From positions 268,281 through 332,280 of the forward strand of contig CAZULC010000001.1 in NCBI GenBank assembly GCA_964621165.1: a stretch of DNA of 64,000 nt, written 5' to 3'. The notes beneath the pieces are model-generated. The model ran no database searches. It was not told the DNA's origin and saw nothing but the letters and a program-made list of their open reading frames with translations. Shown in pieces: positions 3,412 through 61,462 of the stretch. A program made the position numbers and the translations under genes. How positions within the stretch are numbered: the first letter of the stretch is position 1; the number at the start of each line of letters is the position of its first letter. This DNA comes from an uncultured Ruminococcus sp. (GTDB lineage: Bacteria > Bacillota > Clostridia > Oscillospirales > CAG-272).

Positions 3412-3427
3412 GTTTAGGAAGTGGAGC

Positions 3428-3731
3428 GATGGGAGACAAGGGGAACGCGCTTCTTGAAAGAAGCTGTGCAAGAACTTTATTCCTCATTCTCCTTTTGGTT
3501 TAGCTGAGCAGGGAATGCTCACTCCGAACTATTCTGCAGCTGAGTAGGTAGGATACGGTGGTAGTGGGAGCAGTCCTTGAACTGAGGAGTAGTTGAGACG
3601 GCAGTCAGGGACCGCCTGGTCGGTACACTTTTCTCCCCCCTGCCTGCCCTCAAACCCTTCCGATTGCGTAATTTAGCAGTGATAACGTGCAGTCGATAGC
3701 AGTTATATCAGCGCGGTTGTTAGTGCTAAGG
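3428..3731 (+). ncRNA. Family C structured intergenic element, copy a (candidate ncRNA, class unknown)
   Basis: Aligns block by block with 41009-41452 and 54080-54406. Outer stem GGGGAA(3440-3445)/TTCCTC(3480-3485) encloses hairpin GCTTCTT-GAA-AGAAGC. The 3' hairpin is TGATAAC..GTTATATCA. No conserved ORF. Confidence 0.5.
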
Positions 3732-3750
3732 TGTTTGTGCATTTGTGTAC

Positions 3751-3772
3751 CTGCTGCGGGAGCAGATTTTTT
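3751..3772 (+). terminator. Weak intrinsic terminator just after Family C copy a
   Basis: CTGCT-GCGGG-AGCAG hairpin followed by ATTTTTT. Confidence 0.35.
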
Positions 3773-3788
3773 GTCGGCGGTGTCTGAC

Positions 3789-3871
3789 TGCGGCAGCTGA
3801 ACTGTAGAACCGTGAGATTTCTTAAACTTAGGCTGAATAATAGCCGGAGATAGCCCGTGGGGGCTCCCCAC
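3789..3871 (+). repeat. Family A GC-hairpin repeat unit
   Basis: TGCGGCAGCTGAACTG..GGCTGAATAATAGCCGGAGATAGCCCGTGGGGGCTCCCCAC aligns with the units at 61139-61462 and 38097-38777. Confidence 0.7.
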
Positions 3872-3880
3872 TTTTATCTT
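3857..3880 (+). terminator. Intrinsic terminator formed by the Family A terminal hairpin
   Basis: GTGGGG-GCT-CCCCAC followed by TTTTATCTT, directly upstream of the guaA promoter. Confidence 0.55.
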
Positions 3881-3886
3881 ATGGGA

Positions 3887-3915
3887 TTTACAAGAAGGCT
3901 GATTTGTGATATAAT
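3887..3915 (+). promoter_or_regulatory. Sigma-A type promoter of guaA
   Basis: -35 TTTACA (3887-3892), 17-nt spacer, extended -10 TGATATAAT (3907-3915). Confidence 0.6.
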
Positions 3916-3948
3916 TAGAATGATAAAAAATTTAAGGTGGTTTTACAT

Positions 3949-5487
3949 ATGCAGAAGGTTATAATACTTGACTTTGGCGGGCAGTACAAAGAACTGATTG
4001 CCCGGCGGGTTCGGGAGTGCGGCACTGACTCCATTATTATTGACGGCGACATTTCCGCTGAGAAATTAAAAAAAGAGGCTCCCATTGGCGTTATTTTAAC
4101 CGGCGGGCCTAATTCCGTTTATTTATCCGACTCGCCGAAGTGTGACCCGGGAATTTTCGGGTTAGGCATACCGGTTTTAGGCATCTGCTACGGCTGTCAG
4201 CTTATGGCGTACACTCTTGGCGGCCATGTGGACTCCTGTGCGGTCAGCGAATACGGGCGGACGAATGCGGTTGTGGATGTTTCTTCACCATTATTTACGG
4301 GGCTTAATGAGGAGCAGGTGGTTCTCATGTCCCACACGGACTTTGTGGCTTCACTGCCCGATGGTTTTATCGGCATGGGGAAGACGGAATCCTGTCCATA
4401 CGCGGCTTTTGGCGACGTGGAGAGGAAGTTATACGGCGTCCAGTTCCATCCCGAGGTAGAGAACACGGAGAACGGCACAGCTATAATCGCGAACTTTTTG
4501 AAAAATGTCTGCGGTGCCATCGGCGACTACTCCATGGACGATTACCTCAAGAGAACTATTGCGGCAGTCCGTGAGCAGGTAGGGGACAGCCGGGTGCTTC
4601 TCGGTTTATCAGGCGGTGTTGACTCCTCAGTATGTGCGGCATTATTATCCGAGGCGATAGGGGAGAGGCTTGTCTGCATATACATCGACCACGGACTTAT
4701 GCGTGCGCACGAGACCGACGAGATCAAGGCGGCGTTTGCGAATCGGAAGCTGAATTTTGTACCGATAGACGCGTCGGAGAGTTATTTCCGTCGGTTGAAG
4801 GGGGTTGTGGACCCTGAGGAGAAGCGTCACATTATCGGGGACGAGTTTGTGCGGTCCTTTGAGCGTGCGGCGGCGGAGGTAGGTAATCCGGAGTTTTTGG
4901 CACAGGGAACGATATATCCGGACGTAGTGGAGTCAGGCAAGAACAAGAAGTCAGCGGTGATAAAGAGTCACCACAACGTGGGCGGTCTGCCTGAGAAGAT
5001 GAACTTCAAGGGGGTAGTGGAGCCGCTGTCCCACCTATTCAAGGACGAGGTGCGCCGGCTTGGAGTTATGCTCGGACTTCCCACCACACTTGTCAATCGT
5101 CAACCCTTTCCCGGACCGGGCTTGGCAGTGCGTGTAATAGGGGAAGTGACGCGGGAGAAGTGCGACATTCTGCGGCAGGCGGATTTGATTTTCCGAACGG
5201 AGCTTGAGCAGTACCGTGAGAAGTCGGACGACGCGCGTGCGGACCAATACTTTGCGGTTCTAACGGACACGAGGAGCGTAGGAGTGAAGGGGGACTTCCG
5301 GACGTACGGGTACACGGTAGCTTTGCGGGCTGTGCGGACGAGTGACTTTATGACGTGCAGGATTGCGAGATTGCCGTATGAGCTGATAGAGACGGTGGCG
5401 TCGAGGATTGCGAACGAGGTGGACGGGGTCGGCAGGGTCGTGTATGATATCACAGGAAAGCCACCGGCTACTATTGAGTGGGAGTGA
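3949..5487 (+). CDS. guaA: GMP synthase (glutamine-hydrolysing)
   Basis: GATase domain with GICYGCQLM, ATP-PPase motif SGGVDSS, and a C-terminal dimerisation domain ending ATIEWE. ATG 3949 sits 9 nt after AAGGTGG. The GTG at 3937 overlaps that SD. Confidence 0.95.
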   Translation: MQKVIILDFGGQYKELIARRVRECGTDSIIIDGDISAEKLKKEAPIGVILTGGPNSVYLSDSPKCDPGIFGLGIPVLGICYGCQLMAYTLGGHVDSCAVSEYGRTNAVVDVSSPLFTGLNEEQVVLMSHTDFVASLPDGFIGMGKTESCPYAAFGDVERKLYGVQFHPEVENTENGTAIIANFLKNVCGAIGDYSMDDYLKRTIAAVREQVGDSRVLLGLSGGVDSSVCAALLSEAIGERLVCIYIDHGLMRAHETDEIKAAFANRKLNFVPIDASESYFRRLKGVVDPEEKRHIIGDEFVRSFERAAAEVGNPEFLAQGTIYPDVVESGKNKKSAVIKSHHNVGGLPEKMNFKGVVEPLSHLFKDEVRRLGVMLGLPTTLVNRQPFPGPGLAVRVIGEVTREKCDILRQADLIFRTELEQYREKSDDARADQYFAVLTDTRSVGVKGDFRTYGYTVALRAVRTSDFMTCRIARLPYELIETVASRIANEVDGVGRVVYDITGKPPATIEWE

Positions 5488-5584
5488 TTGCACAGAGATA
5501 CTTTCCCGGCTGTAGAGCTGTAAAAGTCGTGTTTTAGTGAAGTCGTGACAACGGATTGACAACAATATTTCATTATTCATAAGT

Positions 5585-5628
5585 AAAGAGCTAACTGATT
5601 TTGTCGTCGGTTAGCTCTTTTGTTTTTT
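5585..5628 (+). terminator. Intrinsic terminator after guaA
   Basis: AAAGAGCTAAC..GTTAGCTCTTT stem (11 bp) followed by TGTTTTTT. Confidence 0.75.
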
Positions 5629-5912
5629 ATTAATATGAATTTTTTTTAATTATCAATTTAATCAGTCATCTTTTTATTTTTTCAATCTAACTATATGCCT
5701 CATCTTTATCCTTTTGCTTAACAGTCTTTCGAGGTCAATGTTTTGATTTTTTTCCTTTACATATTTGGTTAAAATTCCTATGAGAAGTTTGCCTATGCGT
5801 AACATTTCTTGATTGGCTTCGCTTTTCAAGCCATCAGCTTCGCCAGCACCTAATTTTATATTATCTCCTCAATTGTTGTTTGTGTTCTTTTTAACCATCC
5901 ATCAGCATATCG

Positions 5913-6230
5913 CTAAAAATTATAATGAACTAACAATACGCCGTTGTTTACTGGATTCAAGCTCCGGGTAGTGATACCGCCATTTATCGTATTCTTCTTT
6001 TGTGATTTCGCCGTTTTCCAGTTTTTTGCCTGCTCGTTCCATTTGAGGAACATATCGTGCATTGCGGCGCGGGAGGTTGTCAGGTCGGATTTTGGAGTGC
6101 GTACCCCTGTTTCGTACTGTGCGAGGCGGACGTCCGCGCTCTTTTCGGGGAAGCACAAAAGCTGTCCGAGATATTTCTGCGTCATGCCGCGGAGATTGCG
6201 GAAAAAATGGATTCTTTCACCTATTGCCAT
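5913..6230 (-). pseudogene. XRE-family HTH regulator, apparently frameshifted
   Basis: The N-terminal HTH MAIGERIHFFRNLRGMTQKYLGQLL is in ORF 5913..6230. The expected C-terminus GEITKEEYDKWRYHYPE is in a second frame (ORF 5920..6156). The frames switch at the T6 run at 6022-6027. Confidence 0.55.
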
Positions 6231-6885: not shown

Positions 6886-6976
6886 TCGTGGGAGTTTTTT
6901 ACTACTCAGCTGAAGTTGTGCCGATTTCACCTGTCGGGGTGTCCCGACCCGAGTTCACCTGTCGGGGTGTCCCGGC
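6886..6976 (+). repeat. Family A repeat unit with doubled terminal hairpin
   Basis: TCGTGGGAG..CAGCTGAAG..TTCACCTGTCGGGGTGTCCCGAC followed by a second TTCACCTGTCGGGGTGTCCCGGC. Confidence 0.6.
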
Positions 6977-14772: not shown

Positions 14773-14881
14773 GCAGGGCGGGGAAGCCCCGACGGGCAAT
14801 TTCGGGTCGGGAAGCCCCGACGGGCGATTTCGGCATTTCTTCAGTTGAGAAGTGGAGACATCCCACGACGACCGGAGACTG
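14773..14881 (-). repeat. Family A repeat unit (reverse orientation, doubled hairpin)
   Basis: Begins on the base after the TAG stop at 14770-14772. CGGGGAAGCCCCGACGGGC occurs twice, then the reverse complement of the 5' module (..GGTCGTCGTGGGATG..). Confidence 0.7.
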
Positions 14882-15808: not shown

Positions 15809-15902
15809 GCGGGAGCTATTGCATATGGTCGTAGGTTGGGAAGTTGTGCAGAGATTGCCTGTCGGGGCTTCCCGACTCGAGATTGCCTGTCGGGGCTTCC
15901 CG
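15809..15902 (+). repeat. Family A repeat unit (compact, doubled hairpin)
   Basis: TGCGGGAGCTATTGCATATGGTCGTAGG..GATTGCCTGTCGGGGCTTCCCGAC followed by a second GATTGCCTGTCGGGGCTTCCCG. Confidence 0.65.
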
Positions 15903-16096
15903 TAAAAGTAAAACCGCCCGGGAGCAATCCGGACGGCTTCGGGTTAGACGGACAAACAGCGTTATAGTTGTTTGTTTTTTTTGTACCGTTAGGTCGACGA
16001 TACGATTGAGTTAGAGAAGTAATGGACGTAGAATAATCTCGAAAACCTATAATCCTCCACATATGTAATAACACATTTAAAAGCTGTTGTCAAGAT

Positions 16097-16358: not shown

Positions 16359-16496
16359 TTCTCCTTTAGCGAGAAGAAAAAGACCCAAAAGAGGAACTCC
16401 TTGGAAGTCTTGGGTATTTCGACTTCTGCGGAAGTCGACAAAGGGACTTTGTCCCCTTGACCTAAGCTTTTGTGGCGACAACGTGAAGTTTTAGGG
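16359..16496 (+). repeat. Family B structured repeat, copy B1 (5'-shortened, lacks hairpin H3)
   Basis: CTCCTTTAGCGAGAAG..TCGACTTCTGCGGAAGTCGA..GGGACTTTGTCCC..GTGAAGTTTTAGGG. Confidence 0.65.
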
Positions 16497-17351
16497 CTAC
16501 GGGATGTCGGGGATTACTGTCGGAACCTCATCAAGCTGCCACGGGTTTTTTACCACGGACTTCAACAGTTTCAATGCCGACGCGTAGTAGTATCCATCAC
16601 AGATTCTCTCATCTAATACAAACGTAAAGTCCATATACTGCTTCTTTTTCACCGAACCTTGTGCGTCCATCTCATACACCCGTCTCTTGGAGCCGAAGGA
16701 GAAAAATATGGGGCAGGTGCCGAAGTCATAGAGGTGGTGGTAGATTGGCGGGATGCCGAGGGAGCCCATTGACGTTATGAAGTACGAGCAGTGGAAGGGG
16801 CTTACCTTTGCGATGAACTTAGGCATGACTCCGAAGTAGTCGAGGGTCTTGAAAAACCACACGGCGAACTTGAACATGAGTCCGGGGAGTAGGGTAAACG
16901 CCCGTGCCGTATTGTCGAAGTCCCCGCCGGGGTTAGCTCTATAGGACGTGATTTCATAATCGAGGGCCTTATACACGTCCGCGGTGGTGGCGGTGGGAGG
17001 GAGTGTGATTTTCACGACTGTATCAGGGGACTGGAGGGACATTTCCTTTTTGATGGTGAGTGAGACTTCCACGTTTTTTCTTGTCCAGATTCGCTGACCC
17101 CGTATGAATCTATTTAGTGCGGGGCGCTGTGAAACTACGCGGATGAAGGCTGCTATCATGACGTGCATGATACTGATATTGGGCATACCGTTCTGTTGTT
17201 TTTCGCGGATATATTTTTCGATTTTATCTATTTCGATTGAGTCGGTGATGAAGTTCTGTGAGCCGGTGCGGTTTACCATGATGAAGGGGATGACGGCGGA
17301 CATTGGCGACACGGATTTGACCCGGCGGAATTCTTTTTCTTTTTTGGACAT
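16497..17351 (-). CDS. Acyltransferase with 2-oxoacid dehydrogenase E2 catalytic-domain fold
   Basis: C-terminal LDERICDGYYYA aligns with the DHRxxDG catalytic motif of E2/CAT-type acyltransferases. ATG 17351 (MSKKEKEF) is preferred to the TTG at 17375. Confidence 0.7.
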   Translation of the reverse strand: MSKKEKEFRRVKSVSPMSAVIPFIMVNRTGSQNFITDSIEIDKIEKYIREKQQNGMPNISIMHVMIAAFIRVVSQRPALNRFIRGQRIWTRKNVEVSLTIKKEMSLQSPDTVVKITLPPTATTADVYKALDYEITSYRANPGGDFDNTARAFTLLPGLMFKFAVWFFKTLDYFGVMPKFIAKVSPFHCSYFITSMGSLGIPPIYHHLYDFGTCPIFFSFGSKRRVYEMDAQGSVKKKQYMDFTFVLDERICDGYYYASALKLLKSVVKNPWQLDEVPTVIPDIP

Positions 17352-20399: not shown

Positions 20400-20620
20400 G
20401 GGTGAAGTGGAGCGGGTGCGGGAATTTTGTTCTTCTTTTTCTCCTTTGGCGAGGAGGAAAAAGAAGCAAAAAGAGGAACTTTTTATTGAGTCTTGGGGTG
20501 TTTCGACTTCTGCGGAAGTCGACAAAGGGACTTTGTCCCCTTGACCCTAACAGACTTTTGAAAAAGTTTGATCAAAACTTGTGGCAACAACGTTTAGTTT
20601 GAAGTTTTAGAGATCCTTCT
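20400..20620 (+). repeat. Family B structured repeat, copy B2
   Basis: H0 CTCCTTTGGCGAGGAG, H1 TCGACTTCTGCGGAAGTCGA, H2 GGGACTTTGTCCC, H3 ACTTTTGAAAAAGT. It ends 30 nt before the cimA ATG. Confidence 0.7.
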
Positions 20621-22269: not shown

Positions 22270-22600
22270 CTGAATTTGGCGTTTTGGACTAATGCCCTTC
22301 TATAAACCGAATAATATTGTGTGGCAGAGTTTAAATTCGGACTATTGTCCCTCTGTTGGCTGTGCGATATTGTGCGGTGGAATTTATTTTTAGGCTATTG
22401 ACCTGTTGTCTCTGCAGTGGGTGAGTTTGAAATTGGACTATTGTCGCTCTATAAGCAGAATGATATTGTGCGGTTGAGCTTAAAATTGGACTAATGTCCC
22501 ATCGGCAAACGTGCTATATTGTGCGGTAGAATTTGATTTTGGACTATTGTTCTGCTGTCTCGGCTATGCGCGAGTTTGAAATTGGCCTAATGCCATACCG
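22270..22600 (+). repeat. Family E tandem array: seven GGACnnnnGTCC-type palindromes in a 149-bp higher-order repeat
   Basis: GGACTA(A/T)TG(T/C)CC-like sites start at 22286, 22339, 22393, 22435, 22488, 22541 and 22584. Spacings are 53, 54, 42, 53, 53 and 43 nt. Each site is preceded by ATATTGTGCGGTnGAATTTGAAATT. Confidence 0.7.
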
Positions 22601-25799: not shown

Positions 25800-26038
25800 T
25801 TATTTTTCTTTTATGGATTGGATGACGGGGAGATGGTGCGGATTGTTCTTTGTTCTTTTCTCCTTTATCGAGGAGCAAAGAACCAAAAGAGGAACTTCTT
25901 GGAAGTATTGGGGTGTTTCGACTTCTGCGGAAGTCGACAATGGGACTTTGTCCACTTGATCCTAACAAGCCTTTGAAAAGGCTTGACCTAAACTTTTGGG
26001 CTGACTACGTTTTGTTGAAATTTTTAGTGATCCTTCTT
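25800..26038 (+). repeat. Family B structured repeat, copy B3 (full length)
   Basis: H0 CTCCTTTATCGAGGAG, H1 TCGACTTCTGCGGAAGTCGA (25918-25937), H2 GGGACTTTGTCCA, H3 AAGCCTTTGAAAAGGCTT. It ends 14 nt before ATG 26052. Confidence 0.7.
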
Positions 26039-38096: not shown

Positions 38097-38777
38097 TGCG
38101 GGAGCTTAAGTTTGTCGTCGAAGGTTGGCTTTAAATCAAAACTGAACGAACGATGTGCTTGCCCGTGGGGGCTTCCCCGCAATCGTAGGTTTTCGGGCGG
38201 TTTTGGGGCTGATGAAGTGCCGTGCTTGCCGCTACCGACCCCACTGCGGGAGCTTAAGTTTGTCATCGAGGGTTGGCTTTAAATCAAAACTGAACGAACG
38301 ATGTGCTTGCCCGTGGGGGCTTCCCCGCAATCGTAGGTTTTCGGGCGGTTTTGGCTGATGAAGTGCCGTGCTTGCCTGTCGGTGCTACCGACCCCACTGC
38401 GGGAGCTTTAGTTTGTCATCGAGGGTTGGCTTTAAATCAAAACTGAACGAACGACGTGCTTGCCCGTGGGGGCTTCCCCACAATCGTAGGTTTTCGGGCG
38501 GTTTTGGGACTGATGAAGTGCCGTGCTTGCCGCTACCGAACCCACTGCGGGAGCTTTAGTTTGTCATCGAGGGTTGGCTTTAAATCAAAACTGAACGAAC
38601 GACGTGCTTGCCCGTGGGGGCTTCCCCACAATCGTAGGTTTTCGGGCGGTTTTGGGACTGATGAAGTGCCGTGCTTGCCGCTACCGAACCCACTGCGGGA
38701 GCTTTAGTTTGTCATCGAGGGTTGGCTTTAAATCAAAACTGAACGAACGACGTGCTTGCCCGTGGGGGCTTCCCCAC
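38097..38777 (+). repeat. Tandem array of Family A composite units (4.6 x 148-153 bp)
   Basis: Units start at 38097, 38245, 38398, 38546 and 38694 (TGCGGGAGCTT..). Units are near-identical. The last unit is cut at 38777 and supplies the last 14 codons of the GH2 gene on the other strand. Confidence 0.85.
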
Positions 38778-40961
38778 CTTGGCGGCTTCTGCGGCCTCTT
38801 TTGACTCTATGTACATGTTGTATTCGTTGACTATTGTAGTGCCGCAGGCGCATTTGAAGGTCAGCTTCACTTGGAACACCGTCTTCGGCTTCGTTCCTGC
38901 GGGGAACTTGAACTTTATTACGCCGCCTTTGGCGTTTTTGTTCTCCTCTGCCACAACATGGTGTACGCCAGTGTAATATTCAACTCCGTCAAGCGTAATT
39001 TCGGAGATAATGTCGCCTTCCGGTGCGTGAGGGCCGTCGTTGAGCAGCCATGTCTCGAACTCGAACTCCTCCTCCGGAAACCACGCAAATTTCCTGAACT
39101 TGGCTGAGGGAACAACATCGCGGAGGGAGTCTTTTACCGCAAAATACCCGCCCTTTTTCACGTTGGGGTATGCGATGAGGGAGTTGTTCGCGGCGCACTT
39201 CCACGGCTCGCACCAGCACCAGTTGATTGCCATTGCGCAGAGGGGCTTCTGACGGCGGGCTTCCTCGAAAATTGCCTTATATCCGATGCCTTGGAGCCTG
39301 TTTGACGTCTCGACGATTGACTCAATTGTGGAAATATCACCAAATCTTTCCAGCGTTGGAAGACTCAGCCACGGATTCATGCCGCCCCATGCATAGAACG
39401 CGTGATGTGCCTGCCAAACTCCGCCAGGCTTGGGTGGGAACAGCTCGTCCTCGGGGATAAATGAGCGGAGGTACTCTACACTCGGCGGAGTTGCGGGAAT
39501 TCCAAACTCGGTGTAGGCTGTGGCGCGGGTCCGACCGAAGAGTGCGAACTGGTCCTCACCGGTTTCAAGATCGAGGAAGGTATAGCCGCCGTGCTTCATT
39601 CCGTCGATTGGCGAGGTGGGGTTGAAGGGGACTTCGGGGCAAAGCTCGAGGGTGAGTGCGTTGAGGAGTCGGAGCGCGAGGTGCTGATCCGTCATGCCCG
39701 ACCAGCTATTGAACAGCTCGTTTCCGCCGCACCAGATTGCGATGGACGGATGTGAGCGGAGCTTCAGAATTATTGCGGTTGCCTCCTGCTTGAGAATGGA
39801 TAAATATTCAGGGGAGTCGTAGTAGTTATTGCAGGACAGGGGGAACTCGAACCAGAGCATGATTCCGTATTTATCGCAGAGGCTGTAAAAAATTTCCTTC
39901 TGGCATCCGGTACCGCCCCAGCAGCGGAATACGTTCATGTTGGCTTCATACGCGAACCTGATGAGTTCCTCGTATTCTTTATCTGTCACAATGCCGGGGA
40001 AGATTTCCTGATTGACGTAGTTGGAGCCTTTTGCGAAAACGTTGACTCCGTTGAGTGTAATCTGAGCCGGTGGCCATGCGCGGGACTTAGGGAAGCCTTG
40101 TGGGTCGATGAGTCTGCCGCAGTTTTGGGTGAGCTGGACTCTACGGAAGCCGATTTTCTTATCAACTGAGTTTTCTTCATTATAAACGGTGACTGTATAA
40201 AGGTTGGGTTCGCCGTAGCCTCTACACCACCAGAGCTTGGGATTTTCGACGTACGCGGTGAATTTACCGTCAATGGTTGTTCCTTCGGCAACGACATCTC
40301 CTGCTGTGTCGGTGATTTTGACCTTACAGGGGAGTGTTGAGTCGACGGTTGTAGTGACTTCGGCGTGTGTGAAGTCCGGGGAAAGGGTATAGCGGGATTC
40401 TGTTCTGCCGATATAGTATTGGTTACGTGATTCTACGAATGTGTCGTCCCATATACCGGAGGGGATAGCTCTGGGGTGCCAGTCCCAGTAGTAGGAGACG
40501 GGGGGTTTACAGGACTGGGAGGCTTGGTTACGGTCCATTGGCATACCCTCGAGCATGGGGTGGGGGTGGATTTTGATTTTGAGGTTATCGCCGGGCTTAG
40601 TGTTACGACCGAAGAGTGAGTTTGCGAAGTCGTCGAGGCAGATATCGACCCGTGAGAACATACCCTCGTGGTGGAAGATCTCGCGGTCATTGAGGAGTAC
40701 GGTCCAGATATAGTCGATCCCCTCGGTAGCGAACCAGATTTTCTCGCCGGCCTTACGCTGGAAGTCGAGAGTTGTGGTATAATACCAAGTAAAAGGTTCC
40801 AGCTGCGTCATCTTTTCGTGCTGCATACCGTAGTTTATATCCGAGATGAATTCTGGGTGTGCCTTAATATAGTCATTCTGCACGTTTCCGGGAACCTGAG
40901 CGGGAAACGGCGGGCAGTCGACATCCGGCGAGTAAGCGGTAAAATTTTGGTAAAACTTCAT
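38733..40961 (-). CDS. Glycoside hydrolase family 2 (beta-mannosidase / exo-glucosaminidase-like)
   Basis: GH2 architecture with a sugar-binding N-terminal region, a TIM barrel with FRCWGG and CGGNELFN. AAGGAG SD. The C-terminal GKPPRASTSFVQF is encoded by the antisense of a Family A unit. Confidence 0.85.
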   Translation of the reverse strand: MKFYQNFTAYSPDVDCPPFPAQVPGNVQNDYIKAHPEFISDINYGMQHEKMTQLEPFTWYYTTTLDFQRKAGEKIWFATEGIDYIWTVLLNDREIFHHEGMFSRVDICLDDFANSLFGRNTKPGDNLKIKIHPHPMLEGMPMDRNQASQSCKPPVSYYWDWHPRAIPSGIWDDTFVESRNQYYIGRTESRYTLSPDFTHAEVTTTVDSTLPCKVKITDTAGDVVAEGTTIDGKFTAYVENPKLWWCRGYGEPNLYTVTVYNEENSVDKKIGFRRVQLTQNCGRLIDPQGFPKSRAWPPAQITLNGVNVFAKGSNYVNQEIFPGIVTDKEYEELIRFAYEANMNVFRCWGGTGCQKEIFYSLCDKYGIMLWFEFPLSCNNYYDSPEYLSILKQEATAIILKLRSHPSIAIWCGGNELFNSWSGMTDQHLALRLLNALTLELCPEVPFNPTSPIDGMKHGGYTFLDLETGEDQFALFGRTRATAYTEFGIPATPPSVEYLRSFIPEDELFPPKPGGVWQAHHAFYAWGGMNPWLSLPTLERFGDISTIESIVETSNRLQGIGYKAIFEEARRQKPLCAMAINWCWCEPWKCAANNSLIAYPNVKKGGYFAVKDSLRDVVPSAKFRKFAWFPEEEFEFETWLLNDGPHAPEGDIISEITLDGVEYYTGVHHVVAEENKNAKGGVIKFKFPAGTKPKTVFQVKLTFKCACGTTIVNEYNMYIESKEAAEAAKVGKPPRASTSFVQF

Positions 40962-41008: not shown

Positions 41009-41452
41009 TGAAGGTGAACGAGGGGGACGTGCTTCTTTAAAGAAGCTGTGCAGGAACTTTATTCCTCATTCTGTTTTATGTGAAGTTTAGCAGGACATGT
41101 TCACTCCGAGCTAATCTGTAGTTTAGTAAGGAGGATGCGGAGAAAATATAGAATACCAAGGGATCAGGAGGGATATAATACGGCAGTCAGGAACAGCCTT
41201 ATTGGAGATAGCTTGCTATCTCCGGTACACAGTTCCCGCCCCCTGTCTGCCCACGCCGGATTCAGATTGCGGGATGGGGCAGTGATAACGTGCAGTTTAC
41301 ATCAGTTATATCAGCGCGAGCGTTGGTGCTGATGGTTGAGAAGATCATGAAATGTTGCGATTGCTGGATTAGCAGTGATAACGTTTGGTTCTACAGCAGT
41401 TATATCAGCGCGAGCGTTGGTGTTGAGGGTGGAGAAAATCATGACGGTATAT
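41009..41452 (+). ncRNA. Family C structured intergenic element, copy b (3' module tandemly duplicated)
   Basis: Same block order as copies a and c. Hairpin GGAGATAGC-TT-GCTATCTCC is present. The 3' module GCAGTGATAACG..GTTATATCAGCGCGAGCGTTGGTG occurs twice (41279 and 41372, 93-nt period). Confidence 0.5.
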
Positions 41453-44821: not shown

Positions 44822-45125
44822 TGGAATTGGATTTAGAGAATTCAGGGATTTCGTTGTTATTTTCTCATTTATCGATGAGCAAAGGACCAAAAGAGGAACT
44901 CCTTGGAAGTATTGGGTGTTTCGAATTCTTCGGAATTCGACAATGGGACCCGCTTCCCTTGACCCTAACAAACTTTTGAAAAGGCTTGATCTAAACTTTA
45001 TTGCTACAACGTGAAGTTGAGTAGTGAAGTTTGCCCGCGGGGGCTTCCCCGCTTCCCTTGACCCTAACAAGTCTTTGAAAAGGCTTGATCTAAACTTTTC
45101 GGCAACAAAGTGAAGTTGAAATTTA
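44822..45125 (+). repeat. Family B structured repeat, copy B4 (chimeric, 3' module duplicated around a Family A hairpin)
   Basis: H0 CTCATTTATCGATGAG and H1 TCGAATTCTTCGGAATTCGA. The 3' module CTTGACCCTAACAA..AAAGGCTTGATCTAAACTT occurs twice, separated by CCCGCGGGGGCTTCCCCGC (45034-45052). Confidence 0.7.
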
Positions 45126-49754: not shown

Positions 49755-49985
49755 GCTTTCTCCTTTATGGATTTATGTACAAGGGGAGAATAGTGCGGGA
49801 TTTCGTTGTTCTTTTCTCCTTTATCGAGGAGCAAAGAACCAAAAGAGGAACTCCAGAAAGAGCTTGCTCTTTCAGAAGTCAATGGGGTGTTTCGAATTCT
49901 GCGGAATTCGACAATGGGACTATGTCACCTTGACCTAAACTTTTGGGCTGACAATGTTTAGTTTAAATTTATTGAGATACTTCTA
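49755..49985 (+). repeat. Family B structured repeat, copy B5 (lacks hairpin H3)
   Basis: H0 CTCCTTTATCGAGGAG, H1 TCGAATTCTGCGGAATTCGA, H2 GGGACTATGTCAC. It ends 28 nt before ATG 50013. Confidence 0.7.
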
Positions 49986-50012
49986 CGTAACATTTTTTGG
50001 AGGATTTTTACC

Positions 50013-51098
50013 ATGTCTAAAATTTTTAAATCTGCCGTTGTTGGTATGGGCGGAATTGGTCACACTCATGCCACGTGCATCAAAAACGACCCCTTAGCCG
50101 AGCTTATTGCCGTATGCGACTTAATCCCCGCGAAGGCTGACTCAGCCGGTGAAAAATTCGGCGTACCGGCCTACTATTCCCTCAAGGACATGCTCTCCGC
50201 TCATCCGGAAATCGAGGTAGTCCACGTCACCACCTCCGGTTTTGAGAACGGCTCATGGCACTACGTTCCCACCATGGAAGCGTTGGACGCTGGCCGTCAC
50301 GTTCTTGTGGAGAAGCCCATTTCCAACAACATAAACGAAGCCCGCGAGATGGTTGACTATGCGGCGAAGAAGGGGTTATACTTGGGCTGCGACCTGAACC
50401 ACTATTTCAGCGGACCGGCTGACCGTGCACGTGAGATTATTGCGTCCGGCGGAGTAGGCGAGCAGGTTTACACCATGATGAAGGTGGGCTTTGACGGTTC
50501 ATCCACAAAAGTAAATCGTGCGGACAAGACATCCCGCTGGCAGATGCCCTACTCCCATGCGAAGGCGTTTCTGACCCACCCATTCTCGGTCATGCGGCAT
50601 TTCTGCGGCGACGTGACCCACATTCAGGCGTTCATGGACAAGCCGGGCGCCCGTCGTCAGTCGGAGGACTTAATGCTGTCGATTCAGTCGATTCACATGC
50701 GCTTCCAGAACGGCTGTGTGGGATATTTACTCTCCCAGCGTGGCGACGCGATGTTCGGGCTTGGCGGCTGGTGGTCATTTGAGCTGGCGGGGACTCAGGG
50801 AACGTTCTGCATTGAGAACTGTGTGGAGAAGCTGACGTACTGGAAGCAGGGTCAGGCTCCCGAGGTGATGAACACAGGAGTAACGTCCTTTGACGCCACC
50901 TTCCCGATCCGGATACACGCGTTCTACGAGGATCTCGCGAACAACGTTCCGCTTGAGCATTTACGTGCGTCCGGACGTGACGCGCTTGCTACGATGGAGT
51001 ACATTTTTGCGGCGATAGACTCCTACGAGAGCGGCGGTCAGATAGTGCGTCCCCACGCCCTTCCGGCATACCACGGCGACGTACACATCATTCACTAA
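50013..51098 (+). CDS. Gfo/Idh/MocA family oxidoreductase
   Basis: FKSAVVGMGGIGHTHA Rossmann N-terminus and the VEKPIS motif. GGAGG SD. Confidence 0.85.
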   Translation: MSKIFKSAVVGMGGIGHTHATCIKNDPLAELIAVCDLIPAKADSAGEKFGVPAYYSLKDMLSAHPEIEVVHVTTSGFENGSWHYVPTMEALDAGRHVLVEKPISNNINEAREMVDYAAKKGLYLGCDLNHYFSGPADRAREIIASGGVGEQVYTMMKVGFDGSSTKVNRADKTSRWQMPYSHAKAFLTHPFSVMRHFCGDVTHIQAFMDKPGARRQSEDLMLSIQSIHMRFQNGCVGYLLSQRGDAMFGLGGWWSFELAGTQGTFCIENCVEKLTYWKQGQAPEVMNTGVTSFDATFPIRIHAFYEDLANNVPLEHLRASGRDALATMEYIFAAIDSYESGGQIVRPHALPAYHGDVHIIH

Positions 51099-51112
51099 AA
51101 GGAAAAGCAAAA

Positions 51113-51156
51113 GCAGGAGTCGGTCCTACGAAAAGGCGGCTGGCTCCTGCTTTTTT
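51113..51156 (+). terminator. Intrinsic terminator after the oxidoreductase gene
   Basis: GCAGGAGTC..GGCTCCTGC stem followed by T6. Confidence 0.8.
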
Positions 51157-51195
51157 GGGTTATGGTATGGTCGTTGGATTACTTACAATTTCAGC

Positions 51196-51647
51196 TCAGG
51201 AAATGCCGGATATACCCTCGGGGGTTCCCCGTACGGCTTCCTTCATCAGCTCAAGGGCGGCTTCGTCGTTTTTTTTTCGCTTTATCTATAAGTCCGCATA
51301 TTTCTGCCCGGGCGGCGGGGTCAGCGAGGGTTTCGAGGATTTCTTCGTGGGTGCTTCCGCTCCTCTTCCTTATCTCACCCACTACGGCGGCGGTTTCGGC
51401 GAAGGCTTCGGCGGTTTTTTTATAGATTTCGGCTTTATCGGGGGGATTTTGCGGCAAGGAAAGTTAAGTATTTGGCGGCACATGACCGTCCGTCGCTGAG
51501 GCAGTTCAGTGCGTCGGTGTGGCACAGCAGCTTCTCGAAGGATACGGTCAGGCTTCCGTCGGTTGACCTGGGAAAGTTTTTCTCGTTTGAGAGGGCGTTT
51601 TTCCAGCCGTCGTAGGCGAGGGTTCCCTTACAGTAGCCGCAGTCCAT
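51196..51647 (-). pseudogene. Hypothetical gene apparently split by two frameshifts
   Basis: Adjacent minus-strand ORFs 51435..51647 and 51251..51457 are in different frames. Reading resumes past a T9/A9 run near 51280 to a stop at 51196-51198. No family was recognised. Confidence 0.25.
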
Positions 51648-51679
51648 TCGTCCGGTGAGTGCGCGGATTCCGTTCCGGA

Positions 51680-52828
51680 TTACGTTTTTTCATCAAATGG
51701 CTCGCCTTTTACCGCTCCAATGCACATGACGGCCTGTGTGTCGGTGTTCTCCCACCAGTTTTCGCTGATGAAGCAGCCACACTCGTCGAAGGTGACGTTT
51801 CCGCCGAACTCCGGGTCATGCTGGAAGAAATTCCAACCGTAAAGGGTTATGTTATTGTCAAGGGACTGATTTGAGGTTTCGGCAGAAGTTCCCCATTCCC
51901 GGTAGCCGGTGATTATGCAGGGTTCCGGTGGTCCTATGATACCCAGCGCTATGCAGGGGTAGCCTTCGTCTATGTGGGACTTGATGAAGTTTGTGAAGTC
52001 GTCCTTGGTGGTGGTTTTGTCCCGCCCGGTGAAGAAGAATTCCCGTCCCAAAGCTTCTGCTGGGATTCTGTAGACGCCGCCGCTTTCGTCGAAGGTGTGG
52101 CAGATGTCAACGTTGCTCAGGTCCCAGTCGAGGCTGTTCCACGCGAATCTGAACGCGGCTCCGGTGATTGCCATGGTTGTGGGGCAGTCAACGTCCTCAC
52201 CGAGGTAGGCGAGAGTTGATTTGAGGCAGATGGGGTAGGGTGTACAGCCGCCGTATTCGCCGAAGCCAGCCTTGGGGATGCCATATAAGATGGTGCTGTT
52301 GGTGGATTGTTTTGTCATGGGTATGTCGCTCCTTTGTTCTTTTTTGGGAATAATGCCTACGCTGAATATACCGTCACATAATTGCACCTTTCCGACAATG
52401 GGTCGTTCTGAAAAAGATTTGTCGCCATGCTGCGGGAGTTTTGTTTTGTCGTCGTGGGATAGCTTTACGGTTTCAGCTTCAGAAGTGCCGTTTTGCCTGT
52501 CGGGGCTTCCCGACCTGAATTTGCTGGGATTCATGCCTGTGATTCTGTGGAATGAGCGGGTGTAGGTTTCATGGCTGGAGAAGCCGTACTTTAGTGCTAT
52601 GTCGAGTATGGTTTTGTCCGAGTGGAGGAGGTCGAGGGCTGAGCGGTGGATTTTCCGCGTGAGGATATACCTTGTGATTGGCATGCCTGTGTCGTGGCGG
52701 AACTGGGTTCGGATATGCACCCACGAGAAGCCGAGTGCTTTTTGGATTTGCTCCGGTGTGAGTGGGGAGTCGAGAATATGGGACTCGATATAGCGGATTG
52801 CGGCTATGGTGCAGAGTGGATAGCTCAT
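51680..52828 (-). CDS. AraC-type HTH regulator with an uncharacterised C-terminal domain, carrying an in-frame Family A insertion in the linker
   Basis: N-terminal HTH (ITRYILTRKIHRSALDLL..IALKYGFSSHETYTRSFHRITG). The linker SGSPDRQNGTSEAETVKLSHDDKTKLPQ is encoded by the antisense of repeat 52430-52514. AAAGGAA SD. Confidence 0.75.
   Translation of the reverse strand: MSYPLCTIAAIRYIESHILDSPLTPEQIQKALGFSWVHIRTQFRHDTGMPITRYILTRKIHRSALDLLHSDKTILDIALKYGFSSHETYTRSFHRITGMNPSKFRSGSPDRQNGTSEAETVKLSHDDKTKLPQHGDKSFSERPIVGKVQLCDGIFSVGIIPKKEQRSDIPMTKQSTNSTILYGIPKAGFGEYGGCTPYPICLKSTLAYLGEDVDCPTTMAITGAAFRFAWNSLDWDLSNVDICHTFDESGGVYRIPAEALGREFFFTGRDKTTTKDDFTNFIKSHIDEGYPCIALGIIGPPEPCIITGYREWGTSAETSNQSLDNNITLYGWNFFQHDPEFGGNVTFDECGCFISENWWENTDTQAVMCIGAVKGEPFDEKT
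52430..52514 (+). repeat. Family A repeat unit located inside a CDS (antisense to it)
   Basis: TGCGGGAGTTTTGTTTTGTCGTCGTGGGATAGC..CAGCTTCAGAAGTGCCGTTTTGCCTGTCGGGGCTTCCCGAC. All Family A modules are present. Confidence 0.7.
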
Positions 52829-52904
52829 TGGCGTTATTCCTTTATGTGGGGTGATGGTTGTATTATAGCACAGGGGAGCGGGTTTGTCTTGACGATTCTG
52901 ATGA

Positions 52905-52933
52905 AAAGAAAAACCCCGGGGTGAATCCGGGGC
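52905..52933 (-). terminator. Intrinsic terminator after oxidoreductase gene 52948..54027
   Basis: On the minus strand, CCCCGG-ATTCACC-CCGGGG is followed by TTTTTCTTTTC. Confidence 0.75.
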
Positions 52934-52947
52934 TGGTTTAGGTTTCG

Positions 52948-54027
52948 TTACAGCTCAATCTCGACTTCGTGACCGCATGCGTTGGATCTGATAATGCCGT
53001 CGATGATGGCTTGGTTATATATAATCTGCGACGTGGGGATGGGAGCGCCGGTGCCGTTTTTCACAGCGTCGATGAACGCGCGGATTTTGGACTCGAACAT
53101 GCCCATTTTCACGTTATTACCTTCAACGGGGATTTCGGTTGCGATCTGTTTACCTTCTTCGTTGTCCTTATAGAGGATGAGATCTCCTGCGGCGCCGTCC
53201 CAGCAGCATCCGACGGGGGCTTTTACTTTAAGTCCGGCTTCGGTGCCGAAGAACATTGAGTCGCCGGTGGTATCCATATTCATAGCCCACGACGCGCGGT
53301 AGTCGATTACAATATCGCCCTCACAGCGGATCATTGCCACGGCGAAATCGTCGTCGACTGTGAATCTTGCGGCTTCTGCGTATTTTTTGGGATTTTTACC
53401 GAAGTAAGCGAACTGTTTAGCGGAGACTGTGAGCGGTTTAGGGTAGCCGATAGAGTTAAGAGCGAAGTCGAGGCCATAGCAGCCTATATCACCTACAGCG
53501 CCCACTGCGGCTTTATCCTTTTCGATAAATGTGCGTCCGGGGATACCCTTGACTCGACCTCCGCCGACTACCACGTAGTAGACCTTTCCGAGGACTCCTG
53601 AGTCAATGACTTCGCGGACCTTTTTGACGTTAGCGCCGTATCTTGGCTGGAATCCGACTGTGACGAAATGGTTTGTAGCCTTCTCGACCGCGCATATGGC
53701 CTTAGCCTCGTCGAGAGTGACGCACATAGGTTTTTCGAGCATGACGTCTTTTCCCGAGGTGAGCGCGCAGATAGTAGGTGCGGCGTGCTGGGAGTTATAG
53801 GTACACACGGACACAGCGTCAATATCGTCTCTTGCGCACAGTTCCTCATGTGTTTCATAAGCGGCAGCGTCGGTCAAGCCGAATTCGTCGAGGAACTTTC
53901 TTGCCTTTCCGGGAACAATATCAGCTCCGGCTACGACTTCCACGTCATCGAAACTCTTATAAGCCCGTGCGTGGTTATGCGCGATTCCACCGGTACCGAT
54001 AATCCCGATTCTAAGTTTATCCTTCAT
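52948..54027 (-). CDS. Gfo/Idh/MocA family oxidoreductase
   Basis: LRIGIIGTGGIAHNHA Rossmann N-terminus and the LEKPM motif. Confidence 0.9.
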   Translation of the reverse strand: MKDKLRIGIIGTGGIAHNHARAYKSFDDVEVVAGADIVPGKARKFLDEFGLTDAAAYETHEELCARDDIDAVSVCTYNSQHAAPTICALTSGKDVMLEKPMCVTLDEAKAICAVEKATNHFVTVGFQPRYGANVKKVREVIDSGVLGKVYYVVVGGGRVKGIPGRTFIEKDKAAVGAVGDIGCYGLDFALNSIGYPKPLTVSAKQFAYFGKNPKKYAEAARFTVDDDFAVAMIRCEGDIVIDYRASWAMNMDTTGDSMFFGTEAGLKVKAPVGCCWDGAAGDLILYKDNEEGKQIATEIPVEGNNVKMGMFESKIRAFIDAVKNGTGAPIPTSQIIYNQAIIDGIIRSNACGHEVEIEL

Positions 54028-54079
54028 ATGTTTTATACCAACCTTTCTTGGTGAGATTTTGTTTTATGTGTAATACAGT

Positions 54080-54406
54080 GATGGGAAACGAGGGGAGACG
54101 CGCTTCTTGAAAGAAGCTGTGCAAGAACTTTACTCCTCATTCTTTATCACGTTCAGTTGAGTAGGGGAACGGTCACTTCGTACAATTCTGCAGCTTAGCA
54201 GGGAGGAGTCCGGATAAGGTGGAGCGATCCAGGGGATGAGGACACAGTGGCTGACAGCAGTCAGGGACCGCCTTGTTGGAGATAGATTGCTATCTCCGGT
54301 ACACGTTCCCGACCCCTGCCTGCCCACGCCGGATTCAGATTGCGGGATGAAGCAGTGATAACGTTTTATTTACAGCAGTTATATCAGCGCGAGCGGAGTG
54401 CTTGCC
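54080..54406 (+). ncRNA. Family C structured intergenic element, copy c
   Basis: Outer stem GGGGAG(54092-54097)/CTCCTC(54133-54138) encloses GCTTCTT-GAA-AGAAGC. Hairpin GGAGATAG-ATTG-CTATCTCC is present. The 3' hairpin is TGATAAC..GTTATATCA. Confidence 0.5.
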
Positions 54407-57681: not shown

Positions 57682-57786
57682 CATTATTGCACAAGTCCCA
57701 GTTGTATGGCTCATTATTGCACAAGTCCCAGTTGTACGGCTCATTATTGCACAAGTCCCAGTTGTACGGCTCATTATTGCACAAGC
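57682..57786. repeat. 30-bp perfect tandem repeat, 3.5 copies
   Basis: CATTATTGCACAAGTCCCAGTTGTA(T/C)GGCT is repeated from 57682. The only variation is one T/C. Confidence 0.9.
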
Positions 57787-59887: not shown

Positions 59888-61031
59888 ATGAACGTTGCGG
59901 GTCACAAAACAACGGCTTTGCTTTGAGTCCGGCTTCATCTTCACGGTCATGGCGGAGCTTTGGCGGGATTCTGACGTCGATCAGGGGCTTTGTCAGACGC
60001 AATCCAGTGCTTACATAACGGCGGCTCTGGCTGCATTCACATCGGTGACTGCTCCGCTGGACATCGCGTATCTCGGCTACTTCGACTACCGCACACTCAC
60101 CTGCCTGTTCTGCACCCTGTCGGTGATCTGCGCCCTGAAGGAAATCCGGTTCTTCTACGTCTGTGCGGAGAAAATCACATCATTCGCGAAAAATCTGCAG
60201 CTTGCCGCGGTGGTGCTGGTTTACATCACGTTTATCGGGTCAATGCTCAATACGATATGGCGCTGATTATGTTCCTGCCCCTCGGGTACATAGTCCTGAA
60301 ATGTACGCATACGAAAAAAGTACACGGCGTACGTCTTTATTCTCCAGAACATAGCGGCGAACCTCGGAGGCATGCTGACCCCATTCGGCAACCCGCAGAA
60401 TCTGTATCTGTACTCGTACTTCTCCATTCCAGCCGGTGAGTTTGTCACGGTGATGTTCCCGCCGTTTTTAGTCGCGGTGGCCCTGATAACCCTTGCCTGC
60501 TTTGCCCTTCCGAAGAAGCCGATGGAATTTTCCGAGGAGATTGAGAAGCTGCCCACGGCCCGGCTTGCGGCGTAACTCGTACTGTTTGCGGCGTCGATTC
60601 TCGATGTGTTTCGGGCGTGCCCCTACTGGATCGGGCCTATTGTCATCACGGCGGCACTTCTGGTTCTCTACAGGAAAGCCCTCGCCGAGGTTGACTACGG
60701 ACTCTTGTTCACCTTCGTGTGCTTCTTCATTTTCTCCGGCAACATGTCCCGTATTCCGGTGGTGTCCTCTTTCATGAATTACCTCGTGGGAGGCGGTGAG
60801 AGAGCGGCGCTGTTCTGCTCGGCCATGGCCTGCCAGGCGATTTCAAACGTACCCAGCACGATTCTCCTGTCGAAGTTTGTGTCAAGCTTGAAGCCCCTTC
60901 TCTACGGCGTGAACATCGGCGAATGCGGCACCATAATTTCATTCCTCGCCAGACTGATAACGTTCCGCACGTACATGTCCCACAAGAGCGAGTTCGGCGG
61001 TTCGGCAGTCTACATGGGACTTTCAGCGTGA
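59888..61031 (+). pseudogene. ArsB/NhaD-superfamily anion permease (YbiR-like), multiply disrupted
   Basis: Family motifs are spread over three frames (..YFDYRTLTCLFCTLSV.., NDMALIMFLPLG, ANLGGMLTPFGNPQNLYLYSYF, ..ACQAISNVPSTILL). Frameshifts lie near 60245 and the A6 run at 60313-60318. There is an in-frame TAA at 60573-60575. Confidence 0.7.
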
Positions 61032-61138
61032 TGAACTTTGGGTTCTTGGCTGTGCTGCTTGGCGTGTGCATGATTTTGGTATAAGTTATAAATTAAGCCT
61101 TGCTTGAATAAATTTTATTTGAGTGGGGCTTATTCTAT

Positions 61139-61462
61139 TGCGGGAGCTTGAGCTTGCCGTCGAGAGAGCTTTTCCGCTTTTGGCTGAAGAAATGACGAGA
61201 ACACCCGCGGGGGTTTCCCCGCTTCCTTCATTATTATATATAAGAATTTTTGCGGGAGCTTGAGCTTGCCGTCGAGAGAGCTTTTCCGCTTTCGGCTGAA
61301 TAAATGACGAGAACACCCGCGGGGGTTTCCCCGCTTCTTTCATTATTATATATAAGTATTTTTGCGGGAGCTTGAGCTTGTCGTCGAGGGATCTTTTCCG
61401 CTTTTGGCTGAAGAAATGACGAGAACACCCGCGGGGGTTTCCCCGCTTCTTATTATATATAG
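61139..61462 (+). repeat. Tandem array of Family A units (3 x 112 bp)
   Basis: TGCGGGAGCTTGAGCTTG(C/T)CGTCGAG..GACGAGAACACCCGCGGGGGTTTCCCCGC plus a 28-nt AT-rich spacer. Units start at 61139, 61251 and 61363. Confidence 0.85.

Follow-up and report, generated by a model that had tools for sequence, protein, structure and literature searches.

The window analysed here is a 64,000-nucleotide (nt) stretch of an uncultured Ruminococcus sp. genome (assembly GCA_964621165.1, contig CAZULC010000001.1, positions 268,281 to 332,280), in which a minus-strand gene for an AraC/Rob-type regulator contains a complete copy of a small interspersed repeat, termed Family A. A preliminary description, made from the sequence alone, had placed a full Family A repeat in frame within this gene, and our analysis bore this out, with its coordinates correct within one base: the 382-amino-acid (aa) open reading frame (ORF) at 51680..52828 stays open across the unit, as that description had stated. 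The surrounding chromosomal region holds housekeeping and carbohydrate genes, with Family A copies in both orientations relative to adjacent genes, and relatives of the neighbouring proteins are named as Clostridia, Eubacteriales or Lachnospiraceae metagenome-assembled genomes (MAGs).

Family A is represented in the window by ~29 full or partial units (nhmmer matches at E<0.01), occurring as solo copies and in two tandem arrays (Table 1), and other public assemblies, at least four of them (L001, L002, L038 and L039), hold further copies. Its 19-nt hairpin motif occurs 10 times in the window, against 0.01 occurrences expected. Units come in a long form of 84 nt (28 codons) and a short form of ~63 nt (21 codons), both of which terminate in a conserved 6-bp GC-rich hairpin. 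Their build is modular: a 5' module (TGCGGGAGC plus ~8 nt), present in long forms and swapped for other modules in L039, is followed by a core beginning GTCGTCGWGGGA and by the hairpin module. In L039 (GCA_965337625.1), a Clostridia-type contig, nine short units in 9.8 kb (positions 1523–6006) carry a different 5' module (CGGTATTCAGGCGAA-hairpin-GCCGTA), which makes Family A a mosaic across genomes. The hairpin module is also tandemly doubled with a 28-nt period at 6921–6974, 14778–14824 and 15858–15904 of the window; the number of modules is thus variable, as in BOX and BIME elements. Of the array periods, that of 148 nt consists of a long unit of 84 nt and a divergent short unit of ~64 nt (for example at 38330–38391), and that of 112 nt (at 61139–61446) of one long unit and a 28-nt AT-rich spacer. 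Since neither period is a multiple of three, long spurious ORFs run through successive units in all three antisense frames. Short units are often preceded 5' by TAT(G/T), an impression gained from six junctions only.

The regulator itself has the Rob-like architecture of the AraC/XylS family, in which an N-terminal double helix-turn-helix (HTH) is followed by an effector domain. Its sequence matches Pfam HTH_18 and HTH_AraC, and partial matches to the NCBIfam models RobA, RamA and MarA are confined to the N-terminus. A homologue search found 646 proteins; we aligned 13 proteins and then the best 120 of the 646, to which all statements on listed homologues below refer. Nearly all of these 120 are single proteins of ~480–500 aa from Lachnospiraceae or Clostridia MAGs that cover the full query, the single exception to two-domain coverage, P0120, being cut by a contig end. 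Because two-domain single proteins are the norm, the combination of HTH and C-terminal domain is ancestral and the repeat did not fuse two genes.

Within the regulator gene, positions 52431–52514 (+ strand) read TGCGGGAGTTTTGTTTTGTCGTCGTGGGATAGCTTTACGGTTTCAGCTTCAGAAGTGCCGTTTTGCCTGTCGGGGCTTCCCGAC, in which all modules of the unit, reported earlier as TGCGGGAG..GTCGTCGTGGGA..CAGCTTCAGAAG..CCTGTCGGGGCTTCCCGAC, are indeed recognisable. A leave-one-out nhmmer profile, made from 10 window units but not from the copy in question, matched it at E=1.7e-11 (40 bits) over model positions 2–83 of 84; the copy is a member of Family A. Its antisense reading is SGSPDRQNGTSEAETVKLSHDDKTKLPQ, and this segment lies, as previously claimed, between the N-terminal HTH and the C-terminal domain, with Pfam HTH_18 covering residues 30–106 and the insertion starting from residue 106. 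The inserted codons 106–141 comprise the 28 codons of the unit and 8 further ones, which amounts to ~34 residues extra relative to orthologues, and the insertion is strongly hydrophilic (grand average of hydropathy −1.57 vs −0.39 for the whole protein). Unit lengths of 84 nt (28 codons) and 63 nt (21 codons) mean that the downstream frame is kept after insertion. A further claim, that antisense frames of other units are also stop-free, held in part: the frame read in the regulator is open in 11 of 15 translated units, the regulator copy included, and contains a stop in the other 4. In the regulator copy two of the six frames are stop-free, so that about a third of random insertions would leave a gene undisrupted and selection would only have to filter.

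An alignment with orthologues, which the preliminary description had called for, supports a lineage-specific insertion at this position (site 1), the segment being missing in 116 of the 120 listed homologues. After PSKFR, the window protein carries SGSPDRQNGTSEAETVKLSHDDKTKLPQHGDKSFSE and protein P0002 its counterpart, RGTPAGIYGTSEVETAEQSHDDSIRLPQQ, with no others among those listed; homologues with an empty site read FRR-xRPxVGK. Among the four closest proteins (window, P0002, P0003 and P0120), site 1 is filled in the window protein and P0002 only, and the P0120 locus on L038 reads PSQFRRTRPIVGK, an empty site. At the DNA level, site 1 of P0002 (L002 525–609) is a full Family A unit (E=1.2e-12), and the hairpin-side junction is identical between the window and P0002 copies. 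The regulator loci are orthologous, as the same GFO_IDH_MocA gene adjoins the regulator in all those compared. These observations support the conclusion that a genomic repeat entered an interdomain linker at site 1, in frame and in a lineage-specific manner.

That the match might instead reflect chance resemblance, an assembly artefact, or two genes joined by a repeat that landed between them is extremely improbable. The leave-one-out score speaks against chance; the copy is identical in a separate Logan contig, and the same unit is found in an independent metagenome assembly (L002). An internal Shine-Dalgarno-like sequence with an ATG is the only feature that could suggest two cistrons, but all but one of the 120 listed homologues span both domains, and do so without the repeat. 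The candidate explanation of two repeat-joined genes was rejected, fusion being the norm of the family.

In the AlphaFold model of P0002 (overall predicted local distance difference test score, pLDDT, 87; predicted template modelling score 0.88), site 1 is placed between the last HTH helix (residues 101–106) and the first strand of the next domain (138–145). Residues 109–130 have pLDDT <50 and no assigned secondary structure, so that the model shows the site 1 segment as a disordered interdomain linker. The native linker being only ~5 residues long, most linker residues of this lineage come from the unit. The window and P0002 units share 75% nucleotide identity over 84 nt and 15 of 28 residues, with 13 non-synonymous codon differences and 1 synonymous; for comparison, the C-terminal domains are ~85% identical at both nucleotide and amino-acid levels. 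The stretches kept between the two units are the DNA modules of the family, GGCACTTCTGAAG, TCCCACGACGAC and CTCCCGCA. From this we infer that the encoded peptide is a tolerated, neutral passenger.

It is also conceivable, if quite improbable, that the unit has been put to use and is under selection, either as a flexible linker or as a messenger RNA hairpin, with domain uncoupling, translation pausing or separate translation of the C-terminal domain as possible functions. The two site 1 copies differ by compensating changes in the hairpin (GTCGGG/CCCGAC in the window vs GCGGGG/CCCCGC in P0002) at what is apparently one orthologous site, and the hairpin covaries across the family. It is the only covariation-supported structure that RNAalifold detected in Family A: four of its six pairs show double-sided changes, the variants being GTCGGG/CCCGAC, GCGGGG/CCCCGC, GTGGGG/CCCCAC and GTCGGT/ACCGAC, and the observed score was reached in 0 of 500 shuffles. 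The hairpin is also kept in intergenic copies, though, which makes it a property of the element and not of the gene, and gene conversion by other genomic copies, or two independent insertions, would explain the compensating differences equally well. The Shine-Dalgarno-like sequence and the methionine codon that follows it, 30 codons downstream of the unit, are invariant: E164, R166 and M171 do not vary across 112 homologues, and P0120 is called from Met171. Judged from this sequence pattern, Met171 may be an internal translation start from which the C-terminal domain is possibly also translated alone. The amino-acid sequence of the unit is nonetheless free to vary, as the codon differences indicate, and two close relatives as well as 116 other listed homologues do without the insertion.

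Table 1. Features of the regulator gene, of Family A and of the GH2 gene (positions in the window).
Feature	Position	Strand	Evidence and remarks
382-aa ORF, 5' three quarters of the AraC/Rob-type regulator gene, N-terminal HTH and C-terminal domain	51680..52828	-	Pfam, homologues, fold matches
AraC-type HTH DNA-binding domain, residues 1-106	52511..52828	-	Pfam HTH_18 E=6e-16 (residues 30-106); structure matches to MarA, Rob, SoxS
Full-length 84-nt Family A unit (site 1)	52431..52514	+	Antisense to host gene; modules TGCGGGAG, GTCGTCGTGGGA, CAGCTTCAGAAGTGCCG, hairpin GTCGGG-GCTT-CCCGAC
Lineage-specific linker insertion SGSPDRQNGTSEAETVKLSHDDKTKLPQHGDKSFSE, codons 106-141	52406..52513	-	Protein alignments, DNA junctions
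Shine-Dalgarno-like AAAGGAG and ATG (Met171), within the ORF and shortly ahead of the C-terminal domain	52316..52335	-	Sequence; invariant columns
Promoter-like site ahead of the start codon: AAGACA, 17-nt spacer, TG-TATAAT	52862..52890	-	Consensus scan, 10/12 positions; pattern match only
Site 3: decayed remnant of another Family A unit, read in frame within the C-terminal domain as WGTSAETSNQSLDNN between two beta strands	51851..51895	+	Scores of orthologous DNA; window copy too decayed to score alone
Site 4: short-form Family A unit at the gene's 3' end	51157..51232	+	nhmmer E=1.3e-6; same arrangement in L038, E=1.5e-11
Frameshifted 3' quarter, three 1-nt homopolymer indels: 51685-51690 (-1), 51440-51445 (+1), 51269-51277 (+1)	51196..51690	-	Translation in three frames; alignment with the DNA of three orthologues
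Final 14 GH2 codons plus stop, in the last unit of the 38-kb array	38733..38777	-	Antisense frame differs from that of the regulator
Family A tandem array, period 148, 4.6 copies	38097..38777		Repeat finder and Tandem Repeats Finder
Family A tandem array, period 112, 2.9 copies	61138..61461		Repeat finder and Tandem Repeats Finder

Family A has entered this gene at further sites. Site 3, after ITGYRE in the C-terminal domain, holds the extra residues WGTSAETSNQSLDNN, TPKGVTGTSEAETKKKSPDNN or PGASEAEASKKSHDNN in the window protein, P0002, P0003 and P0120 (shortened), and the insertion is missing from the 116 other listed homologues. The corresponding DNA of relatives scores against the Family A profile at L002 1119–1205 (E=2e-5) and L001 3431–3508 (E=5e-3). 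Site 2 is filled in P0003 only, where SGSPDGQNGASEAANASESHD, encoded by a 63-nt short unit (L001 2980–3058), precedes NSTILYG; this unit is recent, and the site is empty in P0120, which is 94% identical to P0003 in nucleotides. At site 4, a short unit takes the place of the gene's 3' end and would, with the frame restored by comparison with orthologues, supply the last ~12 codons (RGTPEGISGIS) and the stop at 51196–51198; among the four relatives, the window and P0120 (L038) alone carry it, P0002 and P0003 terminating in EAVK without a unit. P0002 (533 aa) and P0003 (526 aa) are intact ORFs that carry Family A units, and the insertion sites fit the modelled protein fold: site 1 falls in the disordered segment and site 3 in a loop between strands 297–305 and 327–333 of P0002 (pLDDT 59–81).

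The intragenic copies are mutually nearest in their core (78–83% identity) and share CTTCAGAAG(T/C)GCCG in place of the usual CTGAAGAAATGCCGAG, a likeness that points to either a coding-compatible (CTTCAGAAGTGCCG) subfamily or copying within the gene. We consider it unlikely that the copies at sites 1 and 2 derive from an old site 3 copy by local duplication, template switching or recombination between alleles. Apart from the shared core, such copying would account for the flanks of the site 2 unit, an imperfect 20-nt direct duplication of host sequence (16 of 20 positions) whose second copy is P0002-like, unlike a target duplication made by a transposase. Against it, an intergenic unit in another genome (L039 5831) is equally close to the window copy (82%), and the site 1 copies, being long units, have the 5' TGCGGGAG module, whereas the copy at site 3 is short and has no such module; a genome-wide coding-compatible subfamily accounts for the same data. 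In detail, the 63-nt unit of P0003 (within L001 2960–3080) is flanked by AACAGCACCATCCTTTACGG and AATTCCACCATCCTATACGG, the first resembling the window and P0120 alleles and the second the P0002 allele (AAC TCC ...). This flank pattern is odd for a target-site duplication and may reflect template switching or recombination between alleles.

The window copy of the regulator gene is itself damaged. Its last quarter contains three frameshifts, with the result that it loses ~105–150 C-terminal residues relative to orthologues of ~486–533 aa, residues that are still readable in other frames. The frameshifts are real. A Logan contig (L003, run SRR10165008) is 100% identical over 49892–54119, and AddB (1113 aa), AddA (1218 aa) and nine other genes are intact despite at least 37 homopolymer runs of 6 or longer; homopolymer sequencing errors were rejected as an explanation on these grounds.

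The preliminary description had named a pseudogene as a finding that would count against it, and on this point the evidence is divided: the window gene has its three frameshifts, but P0002, intact at 533 aa, keeps the same insertion in frame. We take seriously, without thinking it probable, that the gene is dead here, in which case the open frame across the unit would be a meaningless leftover and no linker protein would be made. In favour of such a reading, there are three 1-nt lesions in the last ~490 nt when compared with three orthologues, the stretch is exactly reproduced in a second assembly, and neighbouring genes in the window are intact. The same lesion density would predict ~7 lesions in the first 1149 nt of the gene, where there are no frameshifts or stops, and deviations at family-conserved columns are no more frequent than in the intact P0002 (6 of 127 vs 7 of 141). 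The promoter-like site and the ribosome-binding site are intact as well. To judge from the sequence, the lesion-free first 1149 nt, the kept conserved positions and the promoter-like site argue against a long-dead gene; and whatever the state of the window copy, P0002 retains the unit in frame.

Overall, the observations are very probably best explained by a mobile repeat, Family A, that was inserted in frame into this regulator gene, where it forms a tolerated linker, that did so recurrently in the same gene, and that was followed here by frameshifts; in this view, Family A is an interspersed repeat, small, modular and non-coding, that belongs to an uncultured Clostridia/Lachnospiraceae-like lineage. 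The data show directly that the regulator copy belongs to the family, that it is an in-frame insertion specific to the lineage, that it falls in a linker or loop and that the frameshifts exist. Under this explanation, an 84-nt copy would have entered, in antisense orientation, a very short linker-coding stretch (FRR|xRP) between the HTH and the C-terminal, sensor-like domain. It would have done no damage, as its 28 codons preserve the downstream frame and the antisense frame that is read is stop-free. The outcome would be a hydrophilic, disordered stretch of 28–34 residues that lengthens the linker and was tolerated, with no selection on its amino-acid sequence. Equivalent insertions would have occurred at other permissive spots of this gene in the same small clade, namely a loop of the C-terminal domain, a position just before the core of that domain and the 3' end of the gene; three frameshifts would later have arisen in the last quarter, in the window genome.

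Several observations weigh against this explanation. The host gene is truncated in the window and possibly dying, and the linker peptide may never be made in this organism. No other proteins with the unit peptide were found, though both peptide searches had too little power: a profile search with the padded unit-encoded peptide was underpowered and gave two weak matches only, one of which, P0122, led to the Family A-bearing contig L039, and an exhaustive phmmer search of 1.8 billion cluster representatives with the 39-residue insertion found no match, the query being too short and its own cluster represented by an insertion-free protein. The distribution of two sites does not fit a single gain without loss: in a gene tree that is the same for the conserved C-domain and the HTH, (window,(P0002,(P0003,P0120))), site 1 is filled in the window and P0002 and site 4 in the window and P0120, a pattern that calls for more than one insertion into one spot or for precise, seamless loss. 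Finally, since we detected neither a transposase nor clear inverted repeats at the ends nor a target-site duplication, we infer the mobility of Family A from its distribution only, and any mechanism of its spread is likewise putative.

The searches behind this last point were as follows. No transposase domain was found in 30 window ORFs, and the window showed no gene for a RAYT, TnpA or Y1 transposase. When filled sites were compared with empty ones, no target-site duplication emerged at sites 1 and 4, and terminal inverted matches are imperfect and 7–9 nt long only (short form, GTCGTGGGA...TCCCGAC; long form, TGCGGGAGC...GCTTCCCCGC), both overlapping a hairpin arm. Whole units fold no better than shuffled sequence (z-scores −0.1 to −0.9), and a weak 5-pair 5' stem lacks compensatory changes (RNAalifold). 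Hairpin ends, the absence of a duplication and possibly seamless loss are, by analogy, reminiscent of IS200/IS605-type or REPIN-like elements. A more far-reaching version, which we regard as doubtful, is that Family A is a currently active element that seamlessly enters and leaves coding DNA, for example by a single-strand, hairpin-guided route via a Y1/HUH transposase, with a coding-compatible subfamily whose length is divisible by three. If this were true, Family A would repeatedly donate linkers, loops and C-terminal tails to proteins of free-living gut or rumen Clostridia, and RPE-like protein change, as known from the Rickettsia palindromic elements (RPEs), would occur outside obligate intracellular bacteria with a different element structure.

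Searches of nucleotide collections did not extend the family further. Among GTDB species representatives, the pattern TGCGGGAG-N7-10-GTCGTCGWGGGA gave 33 single matches, none in a Clostridia genome; these were rejected as chance matches, mostly in high-GC Actinomycetota, and the source lineage apparently lies outside that collection. An exact three-module pattern gave a single match in JGI metagenomes, L037, which is high-GC and likewise due to chance. Rfam 15 had 0 matches at gathering thresholds over the whole window, and permissive Rfam scans of the 61-kb array and the regulator copy returned nothing meaningful (BsrG at E=0.36, well under threshold).

A second gene in the window also carries repeat-derived sequence. 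The preliminary description had traced the C-terminus of a GH2 protein to another unit, and we confirmed that the codons for VGKPPRASTSFVQF* lie inside the unit at 38694–38777. The GH2 ORF (38733..40961, − strand) is 22 aa longer at its C-terminus than 12 orthologues.

Regarding the remainder of the regulator, the C-terminal part (window 51683–52405, − strand; P0002 residues 138–533) is without a Pfam domain. In the three-part P0002 model, the HTH domain at the N-terminus is followed by a domain of mixed alpha/beta structure and then by a bundle of helices at the C-terminus. In Foldseek searches the N-terminal domain resembles MarA, Rob and SoxS, and the remainder resembles AziU3, CcbD and CtaG (E ~1e-6, TM-score 0.44–0.51), matches that we take to indicate a putative BtrH/papain-like fold of the C-domain. 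Such an effector domain, if the modelled similarity holds, seems unusual on an AraC-type regulator.

The window contains several other repeats. A second interspersed family of ~100–180 nt, with the hairpin TTTCGACTTCTGCGGAAGTCGACAA, is intergenic at 16379–16500, 20421–20602, 25840–26017, 44844–45119 and 49796–49973, and a third, of ~300 nt, has three copies of 80–90% identity up- or downstream of genes (3436–3747, 41018–41444 and 54093–54395). The two ends of Logan contig L003 fall within copies of these families, 49892 within the second and 54119 within the third copy of the ~300-nt family. Two unrelated tandem repeats were also noted, one between LeuA-like and Ddl genes (22284–22594; 149-nt unit, 2.1 copies, 76% identity) and one at 57682–57785 (30-nt unit, 3.5 copies, 98% identity). 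Directly upstream of the 61-kb Family A array, a 141-aa ORF (60606–61031) matches positions 239–319 of 336 of the CitMHS transporter profile only and is probably a gene fragment.

These findings indicate that small genomic repeats can be written into working proteins in ordinary free-living Firmicutes, beyond Rickettsia and a few other cases. A single regulator family has undergone at least four separate events among four close relatives, and its filled and empty alleles provide natural material for questions about the movement of such elements, about the positions at which proteins accommodate additional sequence, and about repeats as a possible source of new linkers and tails. They also carry a warning for annotation: real genes in repeat-rich Clostridia MAGs can contain repeat-derived segments and C-termini, and the numerous ORFs over the arrays are spurious.

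The preliminary description had likened Family A to the RPEs. The comparison is apt for what happens, given three more sites in relatives and the GH2 tail; it is not apt for the structure, Family A being non-palindromic with a terminal 6-bp hairpin only. Of RPE-1, 44 copies are known in R. conorii, nearly half in ORFs, and R. felis has 728 RPEs, 85 of them in ORFs (PMC10969869, PMC1166351). RPEs (Ogata et al. 2000, 2002, as summarised in PMC10969869 and PMC1166351) and Family A are both small non-coding repeats found between genes as well as in frame inside unrelated protein genes; in both, the added peptide sits at a position that the protein fold can accommodate, coding is possible for some subfamilies or frames only, and gain is lineage-specific. 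RPEs are larger (~100–150 nt vs 63–84 nt) and are palindromes over their whole length that are predicted to form a long stable hairpin, whereas Family A has the terminal hairpin alone. RPE hosts are obligate intracellular alphaproteobacteria, the host of Family A a free-living Clostridia lineage of normal GC content. Unlike RPEs, Family A also forms tandem arrays, and its site 1 peptide is a disordered coil in the P0002 model (pLDDT <50). The systems were compared by description only, and sequence homology between them is very unlikely.

BOX modules are present in variable numbers, and Family A is likewise built from modules. ERIC, BOX and MITE-like elements (miniature inverted-repeat transposable elements; Delihas 2007; Croucher et al. 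2011; PMC10969869) resemble Family A in being small and interspersed, with open frames and occasional translational fusions. ERIC and BOX fold into long stem-loops, and Family A differs from them in sequences, sizes and hosts; its units also recur within a single gene, with four sites occupied among four relatives. As in MITEs, the Family A element is below ~300 bp, non-coding and dispersed in many copies, but sites 1, 2 and 4 lack the typical short target-site duplications that flank MITEs. Similarities to REP/BIME elements and to IS200/IS605-derived elements (REPIN, PATE) lie in a GC-rich, covarying short hairpin as the most conserved part and in the lack of an evident target duplication; as in REP, BIME and REPIN elements, hairpin modules are locally repeated (28-nt period, 6921–6974), and the pattern of presence and absence is compatible with seamless loss; the TAT(G/T) often seen 5' of short units, an impression from few junctions, would be a further resemblance. 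Unlike REP and REPIN elements, Family A has ~60 nt of conserved non-hairpin sequence, and its hairpin pairs are direct, not inverted. REPs are extragenic by definition, whereas Family A has copies inside genes and no RAYT was seen with it in the window.

The preliminary description was further aware of no equivalent in Clostridia. A literature search on MITEs or in-frame repeats of Lachnospiraceae and Clostridia indeed gave nothing relevant, although in-frame insertion of a small repeat is already on record in Firmicutes, with pneumococcal BOX among the ORF-carrying small repeats (PMC10969869). Intragenic ERIC, BOX, QMITE1 and Anabaena MITEs are also listed as cases of in-frame fusion (PMC10969869, PMC1166351). 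What is new is therefore the repeat family and its lineage, while in-frame repeat insertion itself is already known from RPE, ERIC and BOX.

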